From Escherichia coli (GTDB taxonomy: Bacteria; Pseudomonadota; Gammaproteobacteria; Enterobacterales; Enterobacteriaceae): DNA of 64,000 nt. The stretch lies in the NCBI RefSeq assembly GCF_003334765.1, contig NZ_QOWT01000003.1; one strand, 5' to 3'. Within the stretch, counting starts at the first letter, position 1; every line of letters starts with the position of its first letter. Both the position numbers and the translations under genes were made by a program. Below the pieces are notes generated by a model. The model was given only the letters and a program-made list of their open reading frames with translations. It had not been told where the DNA came from and ran no database searches. Of the stretch, positions 8,651-42,135 are shown piece by piece.

Positions 8651-8730
8651 GCCTGATGTGCTACGCTTATCAGGCCTATAAAGATGCACGATCGAGTAGG
8701 CTGGATAAGGCGTTTACGCCGCATCCGGCA
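8651..8730. repeat. REP/BIME pair (two inverted REP units)
   Basis: GCCTGATGTGCTACGCTTATCAGGCCTA and TAGGCTGGATAAGGCGTTTACGCCGCATCCGGCA, canonical E. coli REP palindromes. Confidence 0.85.
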
Positions 8731-13952: not shown

Positions 13953-14515
13953 AACGCCATCCACAGCCCCGGCAGCAGCATATTTCCGGTCGCCTGCAAG
14001 ACTTCTGCGACACCCATATTGATGACATACAGCAGCAGAACGAGGATCATCGGCGAGAAATCAATCCCACCCATTGCCGGTAGCAAGCGGCGAATCGGGC
14101 GCAGCAGCGGATCGGCCAGCTGAATCAGCACGTATTCAATCGGGCTACGACCCTGGCTTACCCAGCTCATAATCGCCATCACCAGCAGGACCCAGAAAAT
14201 CAGCAGGCCGATGGTTTTCAGCAGAATTAATAAACCGGCAATCCAAATGATTGGCAGGAAGGTCACCACTTTAAACAGCACGATGGCTTTAATGAAACTG
14301 AGAATATAGGCAACCAGCAGCGAGGCGCTATCAATGGGTCCCATTGCCGGAATAACGCGGCGCAGTGGCCCGATAATCGGCTGCGTTACCTTCACTACAA
14401 ACTGTGAGAAGGGGTTGTAAAAATCACAATGAGCCCACTGCATCCAGATGCGTAATAACAGCACCATGGTATACAGCTCAATGACCGTTGAAAGCAGGAA
14501 AGTCAACGTATTCAT
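13949..14515 (-). CDS. yggT: YggT family membrane protein (188 aa)
   Basis: 188-aa polytopic membrane ORF in the yggS-yggT-yggU-rdgB-hemW operon. Confidence 0.9.
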
Positions 14516-14532
14516 GGCGTTCCTTTAATTCC

Positions 14533-15237
14533 TTATTTTTTAGAGTAATCACGCGCACCAAAAATTGCAGTGCCGATACGAACCATCGTGCTACCTGCCG
14601 CAATGGCGGCTTCCATATCGTCCGACATTCCCAGAGAGAGCGTGTCGATATGCGGGTAGCGCGTTTTCAGTCCGGCAAATGCTACAGCCATTTGGCGTGC
14701 AACTTCAAACTGCCTTACATATTCTGACTCAGGCGCAGGGATTGCCATCAGCCCGCGCAGACGTAAACGCGGTAGTTCAGCGACCGCAGCTGCCAGCTCG
14801 TCCAGTTCAGCCAGTTGAATCCCGGACTTACTGTTTTCATCACTAATATTAATTTGAATCAGTACGTTAAGAGGGGGAAGTTCTGCCGGGCGCTGGTCGT
14901 TCAGACGGGTAGCGATGCGCAAACGGTCGATGGTATGACACCAGTCGAAATGCTCTGCCACCAGGCGGCTTTTATTAGACTGCAACGGGCCAATAAAATG
15001 CCATTCTAATCCTGTTACGCCCAGTTCCTGAAAGTGGCGAATTTTATCTACCCCTTCCTGAACGTAGTTTTCACCAAATTGACGCTGCCCGGCATCAATG
15101 GCTTCTGCGATGGCGCTCGCAGGTTTTGTTTTACTGACTGCAAGCAGCGTAATTTCTTCTGGAGAACGGCCGCAACGCGTTGCAGCCGCTGAGATTTTGT
15201 CCCGGACCTGTGCCAGGTTATGCGCAATATCGTTCAT
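14533..15237 (-). CDS. yggS: PLP homeostasis protein YggS (234 aa)
   Basis: MNDIAHNLAQVRDKISAAATRCGRSPEEITLLAVSKTKP... recognised. Confidence 0.95.
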   Translation of the reverse strand: MNDIAHNLAQVRDKISAAATRCGRSPEEITLLAVSKTKPASAIAEAIDAGQRQFGENYVQEGVDKIRHFQELGVTGLEWHFIGPLQSNKSRLVAEHFDWCHTIDRLRIATRLNDQRPAELPPLNVLIQINISDENSKSGIQLAELDELAAAVAELPRLRLRGLMAIPAPESEYVRQFEVARQMAVAFAGLKTRYPHIDTLSLGMSDDMEAAIAAGSTMVRIGTAIFGARDYSKK

Positions 15238-15254
15238 TTTCCGAGGATCTTAGT

Positions 15255-16235
15255 ATGAATATGGAAGAAATTGTGGCCCTTAGTGTAAAGCATAACGTCT
15301 CGGATCTACACCTGTGCAGCGCCTGGCCCGCACGATGGCGTATTCGCGGGAGAATGGAAGCTGCGCCGTTTGACGCGCCGGACGTCGAAGAGCTACTGCG
15401 GGAGTGGCTGGATGACGATCAGCGGGCAATATTGCTGGAGAATGGTCAGCTGGATTTTGCTGTGTCGCTGGCGGAAAACCAGCGATTGCGCGGCAGTGCG
15501 TTCGCACAACGGCAAGGTATTTCTCTGGCGTTACGGCTGTTACCTTCGCACTGCCCGCAGCTCGAACAGCTTGGCGCACCACCGGTATTGCCGGAATTAC
15601 TCAAGAGCGAGAATGGCCTGATTCTGGTGACGGGGGCGACGGGGAGCGGCAAATCTACCACGCTGGCGGCGATGGTTGGCTATCTCAATCAACATGCCGA
15701 TGCGCATATTCTGACGCTGGAAGATCCTGTGGAATATCTCTATACCAGTCAGCGATGTTTGATTCAGCAGCGGGAGATTGGTTTGCACTGTATGACTTTC
15801 GCATCGGGATTGCGGGCTGCATTGCGGGAAGATCCTGATGTGATTTTGCTCGGAGAGCTGCGTGATAGCGAGACAATCCGTCTGGCGCTGACGGCGGCAG
15901 AAACCGGGCATCTGGTGCTGGCGACATTACACACGCGCGGCGCAGCGCAGGCAGTTGAGCGACTGGTGGATTCATTTCCTGCGCAGGAAAAAGATCCCGT
16001 GCGTAATCAACTGGCAGGTAGTTTACGGGCAGTGTTGTCACAAAAACTGGAAGTGGATAAACAGGAAGGACGCGTGGCGCTGTTTGAATTACTGATTAAC
16101 ACACCCGCGGTGGGGAATTTGATTCGTGAAGGGAAAACCCACCAGTTACCGCATGTTATTCAAACCGGGCAGCAGGTGGGGATGATAACGTTTCAGCAGA
16201 GTTATCAGCAGCGGGTGAAAGAAGGGCGCTTGTGA
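15255..16235 (+). CDS. yggR: PilT-like type IV pilus retraction ATPase homolog YggR (326 aa)
   Basis: Walker A GATGSGKST; start MNMEEIVALSVKHNVSDLHL 25 codons inside ORF 15180..16235. Confidence 0.9.
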   Translation: MNMEEIVALSVKHNVSDLHLCSAWPARWRIRGRMEAAPFDAPDVEELLREWLDDDQRAILLENGQLDFAVSLAENQRLRGSAFAQRQGISLALRLLPSHCPQLEQLGAPPVLPELLKSENGLILVTGATGSGKSTTLAAMVGYLNQHADAHILTLEDPVEYLYTSQRCLIQQREIGLHCMTFASGLRAALREDPDVILLGELRDSETIRLALTAAETGHLVLATLHTRGAAQAVERLVDSFPAQEKDPVRNQLAGSLRAVLSQKLEVDKQEGRVALFELLINTPAVGNLIREGKTHQLPHVIQTGQQVGMITFQQSYQQRVKEGRL

Positions 16236-16266
16236 CGTTGCTGTGTCTGATACGAATTGTAAATAT

Positions 16267-16360
16267 GCCCGATGCGCAAGCTTATCGGGCCTACAAGGGA
16301 AGCGTAACTTTGAATTCGCACTCACTGTAGGTTGGATAAGGCGTTTACGCCGCATCCAAC
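16267..16360. repeat. REP/BIME pair
   Basis: GCCCGATGCGCAAGCTTATCGGGCCTAC ... GTAGGTTGGATAAGGCGTTTACGCCGCATCCAAC. Confidence 0.85.
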
Positions 16361-16408
16361 ATGAAACAATGAGCACATTGTCAGAAATCTGTGCGCTAGT
16401 AAATCGCC

Positions 16409-16825
16409 TTAATATCCCTGCTCGAAATAGCTTTCGAGAATAATAACCGCAGAGGCAGAGTCGACTTTGCCTTTGTTGAGCGCCCGATAGCCGCCCTGTT
16501 CAAACAGACCGGAACGTGCCTCCACGGTGCTAAGTCGCTCGTCATGGAGCTTTACTTCAACACCGAAACGACCATGAATACGGTTGGCAAATTTACGCGC
16601 TCTGGCGGTTAACGGCTGTTCGGTGCCGTCCATATTCAGCGGCAAACCGACGATGATTTCGTCCGGCTGCCACTCTTTCAGTAAACGCTCGATAATGTTC
16701 CAGTCCGGCGTACCGTCCTGCGCTTTAATTGCAGGCAAAGGGCGAGCGGTGCCGGTAATGCGTTGGCCGACCGCTACGCCAATGCTTTTGGTGCCGAAGT
16801 CGAAGGCGAGTAAGGTTCCACTCAT
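16409..16825 (-). CDS. ruvX: putative pre-16S rRNA nuclease / Holliday junction resolvase-like RuvX (138 aa)
   Basis: [30 protein letters not shown]...; start overlaps yqgE stop. Confidence 0.93.
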
Positions 16826-19270: not shown

Positions 19271-19978
19271 TTAGCTCTTTCGCGCCTGGCAAGCGCGTTG
19301 CACATACGGGTTATGATTGCCCTGCACCTTCGCGATGCGTTCATCACGCTCGCACTCCCAGTCGGTAACTGGATACATCTTGTCCCATGCGTTGAACAGC
19401 TGCGTTTGCTGACGAGAGAGTGTCAGGTTGTATTGGTCACGCATATAGAAGTAGGTGCGCGCAATGGCACCGCGTGCACGCGCTGGTGGCTCGGCAACTT
19501 TTTCTTTGAAATCGACCTTCATGGCGCATTGACCGTACTGGCCTTCACCGCCATTCCACTGGCTGTACATAAAGTTGCCGCGATCGCCATTCACCTCACC
19601 GACTGACGGCTGCAGGTTATGCATATCGCTTTCCATCTTGCGATAGACCGGATCTTTGGCGCAATTTTTACGTCCACCGTCCTGCCAGCACTGGCGCTGG
19701 TGACCGAATTGCCAGGCAGGAACGACGTGTTCCCACTCTACGCGGCTGGCACGGTTTTCATTTTTTCGCACCTGATAGCCGCACGATTGCAGATCAACAA
19801 CGCCTTTTTTGCCCTGCCAGTTAATTTTACATCCGCAATAAAACGTACCGGGCGCGTCAGCGTGGACTTTTACCGCCGCGGCTTTCGCTTGAGAAAAACT
19901 ATTGATACCTTCGGCCAATGCCGGGCCGGAAAATGCTGCGCTCAGTACCACCGCAGCAATAGACAAATAACGGTACAT
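19271..19978 (-). CDS. endA: periplasmic endonuclease I (235 aa)
   Basis: [44 protein letters not shown]... recognised. Confidence 0.95.
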
Positions 19979-20072
19979 CACTTACTCCGTGTTAAAACGA
20001 GCCAGCAACGTAGCGAAAGTTGTTTTGGTATGCAATCAGCCAGATCAGGAAAGTTCCTGATAGTTCAGGTGG

Positions 20073-28382: not shown

Positions 28383-29141
28383 TTACTTAACTCCATCCGC
28401 GCTCATACGATCGCGAATATGCTGGGCGCGTTCGGCGGATGCTGGATGGTCGTCAAACATTGAGCTTTGACGGCCTTCTTCCAGCTTCGCCAGTTTTTCA
28501 AAGCTGGTGGCAAGACCTGCCGGGCTGATGCCGCGTTGGCGCAGAAGATCGTAAGAATAATCATCGGCTTCTGCTTCCTGGCGCTGGGAGAATTGCGAAT
28601 TAACTAATTTCTCGCCCAGATCACCGAGTTGTGATTGAGATAAACTGCCGACAATCCCGCCCGCAGAGGCCGCAGCTACTCGTACGGCATTTGTACCAAG
28701 TGCCACCTGCATCCCTTTTTTCACATGGCCCAACGCTACGTGCCCCATCTCGTGACCGATCACCGCTTCGACTTCGTTATCTGTCATCATATCCATCAGC
28801 CCGCTATAGACGCGGATACAGCCGTTAGCCATTGCAAAGGCGTTCACATCCTTCGCCATATACACTTTGTAATTCACCGGCTGACCGTTGATATTGTTGC
28901 CTAGCGCATTGGCAATAGTTGTCAGACGTTTAGCGTATTCGCTATTGGCTGGCGCAATCGTCGCCTTGCTGTCCATCTCCTGACATGCCTGATCGCTCAG
29001 GGTTTTCACCTGCGCATCACTCAAACTGTAAGCCTGAAAAGCTTCCGCTCCTGATGAGAGCAGTCCGTTGGCGTCCATATTCTGGCAACCGCTCAGTACC
29101 GTTGCCACGCTCATTGCTACCAATAAGGCGCGAATTTTCAT
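28383..29141 (-). CDS. loiP: outer-membrane metalloprotease LoiP (252 aa), M48 family lipoprotein
   Basis: MKIRALLVAMSVATVL-GC lipobox, HEMGH zinc motif; start 73 codons inside ORF 28383..29360. Confidence 0.93.
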   Translation of the reverse strand: MKIRALLVAMSVATVLSGCQNMDANGLLSSGAEAFQAYSLSDAQVKTLSDQACQEMDSKATIAPANSEYAKRLTTIANALGNNINGQPVNYKVYMAKDVNAFAMANGCIRVYSGLMDMMTDNEVEAVIGHEMGHVALGHVKKGMQVALGTNAVRVAAASAGGIVGSLSQSQLGDLGEKLVNSQFSQRQEAEADDYSYDLLRQRGISPAGLATSFEKLAKLEEGRQSSMFDDHPASAERAQHIRDRMSADGVK

Positions 29142-41930: not shown

Positions 41931-42135
41931 GGCCCGCTCTGCGGGTCTTTTTTTCGCCAAAAGCAAAATTGCCTGATGCGCTACGCTTATCAGGCCTACA
42001 CGTATCCTGCAATATATTGAATTTGCAGGTTTTTGTAGGCCGGATAAGGCGTTCACGCCGCATCCGGCATGACAAAGCGCACATTGATATCTGTCTGAGC
42101 CCCGCTCTGCGGGGATTTTTTCGCCAAAAGCAAGG
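41931..42135. repeat. fbaA terminator plus REP/BIME pair, flanked by a duplicated 35-bp terminator-like module
   Basis: copy 1 CCCGCTCTGCGGGTCTTTTTTTCGCCAAAAGCAA (41933-41967), REPs GCCTGATGCGCTACGCTTATCAGGCCTAC and GTAGGCCGGATAAGGCGTTCACGCCGCATCCGGC, copy 2 CCCCGCTCTGCGGGGATTTTTTCGCCAAAAGCAA (42100-42133). Confidence 0.85.

Follow-up and report, generated by a model that had tools for sequence, protein, structure and literature searches.

The closest known counterparts of YggR are the PilT ATPases of Pseudomonas aeruginosa (3JVU/3JVV), Vibrio cholerae and Legionella pneumophila, with which it has family, two-domain fold and catalytic motifs in common. The Escherichia coli gene itself has been characterised experimentally in a heterologous host: E. 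coli pilT (that is, yggR; NP_417425) fully restored natural transformation in V. cholerae ΔpilT or ΔpilTU strains, and with the K-12 allele, pilT mutants of V. cholerae regained pilus retraction that depends on the ATPase (preprint, bioRxiv 10.1101/2021.10.23.465551). In this retraction assay YggR thus shares the activity of PilT. According to the same preprint, E. coli PilT binds itself and PilC in two-hybrid assays, and the Walker A and Walker B (E201A) mutants of K-12 YggR are inactive. Unlike canonical PilT, it does not support PilU-dependent retraction, and neither restoration of AIRNLIRE nor the addition of 15 C-terminal residues cures this defect. The literature further reports that V. 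cholerae pilB is not complemented by HofB, whereas V. cholerae pilT is complemented by YggR. Among the papers available to us, none examines yggR in the native PpdD pilus system of E. coli, and none names both yggR and PpdD.

We analysed yggR within a 64,000-nucleotide stretch of an E. coli contig (NZ_QOWT01000003.1), hereafter the window. The gene consists of 326 codons followed by TGA, and the RefSeq annotation has identical ends and the product name “PilT/PilU family type 4a pilus ATPase”; the coordinates of all features are collected in Table 1. A longer reading frame could start at a TTG at 15180, but homologs align from the first methionine (MNMEEIV versus MDITELL), which indicates that the ATG at 15255 is the real start. 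A 2.1-kb query around yggR is 100% identical to strain B771 (NZ_CP120557.1) and finds matches in all 5426 complete E. coli genomes, covering at least 80% of the query length in 5413 of them (99.8%). yggR is therefore close to a core gene of the species. The YggR allele of the window is identical to that of the K-12-derived strain DH5alpha at 320 of 326 positions, and no motif differs. Taken as a whole, yggR is an annotated, near-universal and already known gene, real but ordinary. The “yggR” label that appears beside blaCMY-2 in papers on resistance genes refers to truncated fragments in mobile contexts, other than the locus described here.

Table 1. Features of the yggR locus, in window coordinates.
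Feature	Position	Strand	Basis and remarks
yggS, PLP homeostasis protein, divergent neighbour	14533..15237	-	Kept beside pilT in distant bacteria; start codon 17 bp from that of yggR
CRP-S-like 22-bp palindrome, candidate site	15103..15124 (core 15106-15121)	.	TGCGATGGCGCTCGCA; TGCGA-N6-TCGCA; within yggS codons 39-44
Shine-Dalgarno-like GAGGA	15243..15247	+	Within the 17-bp gap, 7 nt ahead of the ATG of yggR; read from the sequence
yggR CDS, E. coli PilT ortholog (very probable)	15255..16235	+	326 codons + TGA, ATG start; open reading frame and translation
PAS-like N-terminal domain, ~residues 1-95	15255..15539	+	Aligns to the N-terminal domain of solved PilTs; least conserved part of YggR
yggR segment with ATPase core	15561..16232	+	Pfam T2SSE at residues 63-265; model pLDDT >90; TM 0.92-0.94 to PilT structures
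Walker A, GATGSGKST, residues 127-135	15633..15659	+	G127, T129, G130, G132, K133, S134 and T135 invariant
Asp box, EDPVE, residues 156-160	15720..15734	+	E156, P158 and E160 invariant; D157 nearly invariant
Walker B, DPDVILLGELRD, residues 193-204, catalytic E201	15831..15866	+	D193, P194, D195, G200, E201, R203 and D204 invariant
His box, TGHLVLATLH, residues 217-226	15903..15932	+	T217, G218, L220, V221, T224 and H226 invariant; H219 nearly invariant
AVGNLIRE, variant of the PilT signature AIRNLIRE, residues 285-292	16107..16130	+	6 of 8 positions agree; 13-sequence alignment
REP element 1	16264..16295	+	Hairpin arms 16264-16273/16284-16293; tail CTTATCGGGCCTACA, 0 mismatches to the REP motif
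REP element 2, inverted relative to REP element 1 (BIME-like pair)	16326..16360	-	Hairpin 16331-16344/16347-16360; inverted arms with REP element 1; motif match

Profile searches placed YggR firmly in the PilT/PilU family. It matches the NCBIfam model TIGR01420 with 472.2 bits against a cutoff of 319.1, over model positions 1-329 of 343, and it stays far below the NCBIfam cutoffs of other secretion-ATPase families (GspE, 156 versus 630 bits; PilB, 139 versus 676 bits). The only strong Pfam match is T2SSE (PF00437, residues 63-265), and no AAA+ module beyond the P-loop was found in Pfam: the matches to AAA_22 and AAA_29 cover only 23-45 residues around the P-loop, with E-values of about 5e-4 or above. 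The label “AAA+”, which a first-pass annotation of this DNA had given to the protein, was therefore dropped; by its sequence matches, YggR belongs to the PilT/VirB11-like secretion ATPases and not to the classical AAA+ proteins.

Structural comparison revealed that the closest solved structure is P. aeruginosa PilT (3jvu), with an E-value of 4e-83 and residues 1-322 of YggR aligned to residues 1-325, followed by other PilTs. The AlphaFold model of YggR (pLDDT 89.4, pTM 0.83) resembles the PilT crystal structures with TM-scores of 0.92-0.94 and an rmsd of 2.0-2.2 Å over ~325-331 columns. In this model and its superpositions, YggR is built of a PAS-like N-terminal domain, whose limits were taken from the K-12 protein in the preprint (bioRxiv 10.1101/2021.10.23.465551), and a RecA-like ATPase domain. 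The E. coli ATPases for extension (HofB/PilB) and secretion (GspE) have the T2SSE ATPase core in common with YggR; they differ in an extra N-terminal domain that is absent from YggR. Compared to canonical PilTs of 344-345 residues, YggR has 326, as some 15-20 C-terminal residues are missing. Its earlier description as full-length thus held for the two domains, but not for the C-terminal end. Further differences from canonical PilT are AVGNLIRE in place of AIRNLIRE, an alanine instead of proline in Walker A, and a divergent N-terminal domain.

Walker A, the Asp box, Walker B and the His box are all intact in an alignment of 13 sequences, namely YggR and 12 relatives of 45-61% identity. The Walker A motif GATGSGKST had been reported as intact, and the alignment bears this out; residue A128 replaces the usual proline, as it does in the closest relatives and in PilU. 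The first-pass annotation had also named loss of the catalytic motifs on alignment as the finding that would speak against a PilT/PilU-type ATPase, and as all four motifs are in place, this test was negative.

Several of these features are equally those of PilU: TIGR01420 lumps PilT and PilU, the two are similar in size and fold, P. aeruginosa PilU ranks with the top fold matches of the YggR model, and the gene at the PilU position has the same alanine-containing GATGSGKST. YggR might accordingly be an accessory ATPase of the PilU type and not the primary motor PilT. This identity was rejected on direct comparison. Compared with a locus in which both paralogs occur, YggR shares 48% identity with the product of the PilT-position gene and 33% with that of the PilU-position gene, and the site of AVGNLIRE reads LIADLIMK in the latter, so that YggR keeps NLIRE where PilU has DLIMK. 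Against solved structures it scores 282 bits with PilT and 243 bits with PilU. In addition, YggR acts alone in the ΔpilTU strain, whereas PilU needs PilT to act and cannot do so by itself (PMC6762196). Together with its position in the PilT slot beside yggS, these comparisons place YggR closer to PilT than to PilU by sequence, and we regard the PilU assignment as extremely unlikely.

The gene had been described as an orphan that stands alone. No pilus gene other than yggR is annotated within the 64-kb window, and yggS is divergent from it, as had been stated. To see the arrangement in distant bacteria, we took PilT homologs from a library at 50% identity and fetched their contigs; five contexts were informative and two were too short to show the neighbours. 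In four of the five, pilT is accompanied by a divergent YggS-type Ala_racemase_N gene of 228-283 residues (~230 residues in three of the four), which is followed by ProC and/or YggT in three. One of these four contexts is that of L. pneumophila PilT, which occupies the same genomic slot as yggR and has no further pilus gene within 6 kb. pilU lies directly 3' of pilT in one distant context, and in the single exception among the five, pilT lies among pilin genes. The recurrence of the divergent yggS-pilT arrangement in distant relatives indicates that yggR still sits at the ancestral, gammaproteobacterial pilT address. Hence “orphan” was accurate for the window but overstated as an anomaly: yggR is not misplaced, and a pilT divergent from yggS and apart from other pilus genes is a conserved arrangement. 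What distinguishes the E. coli locus from canonical pilT is the lack of a downstream pilU and the short distance of the two start codons; both pilU and proC have been lost from the neighbourhood of yggR.

The partner machinery is encoded elsewhere, as the first-pass annotation had supposed, at four other places of the same chromosome. The minor pilin genes ppdA-ppdB-ygdB-ppdC lie ~123 kb from yggR, the prepilin peptidase gene gspO ~450 kb, hofMNOPQ (alignment complex and secretin) ~500 kb, and ppdD-hofB-hofC (pilin, extension ATPase and platform) ~1.85 Mb. In B771, IS1 has disrupted the type II secretion operon (2857464-2861141), which retains gspM, gspO and partial copies of gspA and gspL but has no gspC-K. 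Within the window, endA, which codes for the periplasmic DNase I, is found at 19271-19981 on the minus strand, on the far side of ruvX and ~3 kb away from yggR; the closeness of this DNA-related gene to the motor gene of a DNA-uptake pilus is probably a coincidence.

YggR could also have been repurposed, for example for signalling or metabolic regulation, or it could act in another filament machine, for instance in type II secretion. Along this line, two independent high-throughput screens for protein interactions in E. coli recorded a PykA-YggR pair (PMC8167557), a screen of over-expressed genes for oxidant resistance included yggR (PMC8228696), the N-terminal domain and the C-terminus are the parts least conserved relative to canonical PilT, and cooperation with PilU has been lost. 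However, interaction matches from high-throughput screens are weak evidence, and according to the literature YggR remains able to retract the type IVa pilus of another species and to bind PilC. In the same genome, yggR is intact although IS1 has removed part of the gsp operon, which argues against dependence on type II secretion. Taken together, we consider repurposing very unlikely.

Conservation of the gene was assessed in 30 enterobacterial species genomes. yggR is intact in 28 of them, with 326 residues in 27 and 329 in Cedecea, and frameshifted in two, which may be assembly errors. Comparisons with the allele of the window gave dN/dS values of 0.03-0.06 inside the genus Escherichia and of 0.05-0.12 between genera, indistinguishable from those of the housekeeping gene yggS; as dS is saturated in the far comparisons, it is the within-genus values that carry weight. 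yggR is thus under purifying selection as strong as that on a housekeeping gene. Within E. coli, YggR has its full length in both large protein clusters, of 3873 and 3497 members. Rare forms comprise one from Shigella flexneri missing 13 residues in frame, including the His box, one from Shigella boydii missing 24 residues in frame after the Asp box, and further variants with in-frame losses of 19 or 36 residues; one cluster of 299 members ends at residue 306. The deletion variants look like local decay in some lineages, and the in-frame deletions in some Shigella and E. coli lineages indicate that yggR is dispensable in some niches.

Such variants, along with the frameshifts in two of the 30 species genomes, would suit a silent relic, that is, a protein that works if forced into another species and is never used by E. 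coli. A scan found no promoter-like site in the yggR region, and the partner genes ppdD and hofM were reported to be undetectable without artificial induction of Sxy (PMC1635313), both of which would fit as well. However, a relic is expected to drift toward a dN/dS of 1 and to gather stops, and the purifying selection on yggR contradicts this. The length of 326 residues is kept across genera, as are all catalytic residues, and 99.8% of complete E. coli genomes carry the gene. A silent relic is accordingly very unlikely.

We conclude that YggR is very probably the E. coli PilT ortholog and the retraction motor of the type IVa (PpdD) pilus. PilT works as a hexamer; as a working model, the YggR hexamer would likewise dock on the inner-membrane platform protein HofC of the type IVa pilus machine, and its ATP hydrolysis would pull pilins from the base of the fibre back to the membrane, upon which the pilus retracts. 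The gene for this motor has stayed at the ancestral pilT position, with no pilU after it, and the rest of the machine is spread over the four other chromosomal loci. We infer that the native substrate is the PpdD pilus and that yggR is expressed together with this normally silent system. The intact partners and the selection on yggR support the view of a complete type IV pilus/DNA-uptake machine that E. coli retains in a normally silent state.

The start codons of yggS and yggR are 14-17 bp apart in all the enterobacterial species genomes in which yggS was located (27 of 30), and the gap and the GAGGA motif are kept in 30 enterobacterial loci. A gap of 17 bp leaves no room for promoters. A consensus scan of 14500-16500 detected no sigma-70-like promoter, and a hand-read candidate around 15127-15155 (TTGTTT-17-TAATTT) was too weak to claim. 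Among enterobacterial orthologs, synonymous diversity falls at both facing gene ends, to 0.07 in yggS codons 1-15 compared to 0.34 gene-wide, and to 0.12 in yggR codons 1-15 compared to 0.46 gene-wide. This pattern suggests that the regulatory DNA of the two genes (promoter and 5' UTR) lies inside each other, with transcripts that overlap head to head (15190-15320). A third stretch of yggS with nearly no synonymous variation across genera is formed by codons 171-176 (14710-14727; H 0.025 versus a mean of 0.33).

As the other pilus operons of E. coli are driven by Sxy-dependent CRP-S sites (PMC1635313), we searched for such a site at yggR, defined as a palindrome of 22 bp, located upstream of the regulated gene, whose two half-sites (TGCGA core) each have C at position 6. 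The candidate that was found, TGCGATGGCGCTCGCA, has the only perfect TGCGA-N6-TCGCA of the 64-kb window, where 0.13 are expected, and lies 134 bp upstream of the yggR ATG. The yggS codons that contain it form one of the two 6-codon windows that share the lowest synonymous diversity in yggS (H 0.013 versus a mean of 0.33), and the amino-acid-changing substitutions at the palindrome fall mostly in the N6 spacer, apart from a G-to-T in the left half, which reads TTCGA in many Citrobacter. Upstream of ppdD, the sole CRP-S-like sequence found by eye reads TTCGT-N6-TCGCA, and its TTCGT half softens the objection raised by the Citrobacter TTCGA. The distance to the start codon is also similar by our own reading of the sequence, ~141 bp for the palindrome and ~137 bp for the ppdD candidate.

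The same stretch encodes part of the conserved PLP-binding region of yggS, a conserved coding motif. Moreover, TGCGA-N6-TCGCA with one mismatch allowed had no match upstream of ppdD, hofM or ppdA, the locations of published CRP-S sites; as the simple pattern misses these, it is invalid as a detector, and the yggR palindrome, despite its perfect match, is not scorable against real sites. In V. cholerae, pilT is constitutive and not controlled by TfoX (PMC4581735), and Sinha and Redfield (2012) mention neither pilT nor yggR. A terminator scan also flagged the palindrome as a hairpin with a T-run. The reading as an RNA hairpin or terminator was rejected: the G-to-T of Citrobacter breaks a stem pair without a compensating change, and nothing lies upstream on the plus strand to terminate.

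It is possible, though rather doubtful, that yggR is wired into the Sxy/CRP-S competence regulon through this candidate site inside yggS. With the start codons only 17 bp apart, the promoter of either gene would be located in its neighbour, and interference between the head-to-head overlapping transcripts might allow the constitutive yggS promoter to hold yggR down until Sxy is made. If true, the site would account for the joint switching-on of the retraction motor and the other pilus parts, and it would illustrate that the coding sequence of a neighbouring gene can contain a regulatory site.

On its 3' side, yggR is followed by the REP pair that the first-pass annotation had pointed out, placed between the convergent yggR and ruvX and composed of two inverted hairpins (Table 1). 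This agrees with the usual form of E. coli REP/BIME repeats, which are imperfect palindromes of roughly 35 bp with a conserved tail, present in many copies and often arranged as inverted pairs between convergent genes. The 15-base REP tail motif occurs seven times in the window compared to 0.27 expected, and six of the seven are arranged in three inverted pairs. The full 36-base REP consensus, with 3 mismatches allowed, had no match, because this pattern is too strict for the REP variants present here. REP element 2 matches the Rfam family naRNA4, which is derived from REP elements, with 36 bits, below the gathering threshold. The other sites of the tail motif, at 8666-8709, 29027-29041 and 41986-42048, are two inverted pairs and one weaker single match. 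The REP cluster after yggR (16236-16408) varies by strain: the window carries two REPs, the first of which is preceded by a 22-nt insertion, three REPs lie between yggR and ruvX in K-12 and E. albertii, and the spacer of Salmonella is unrelated.
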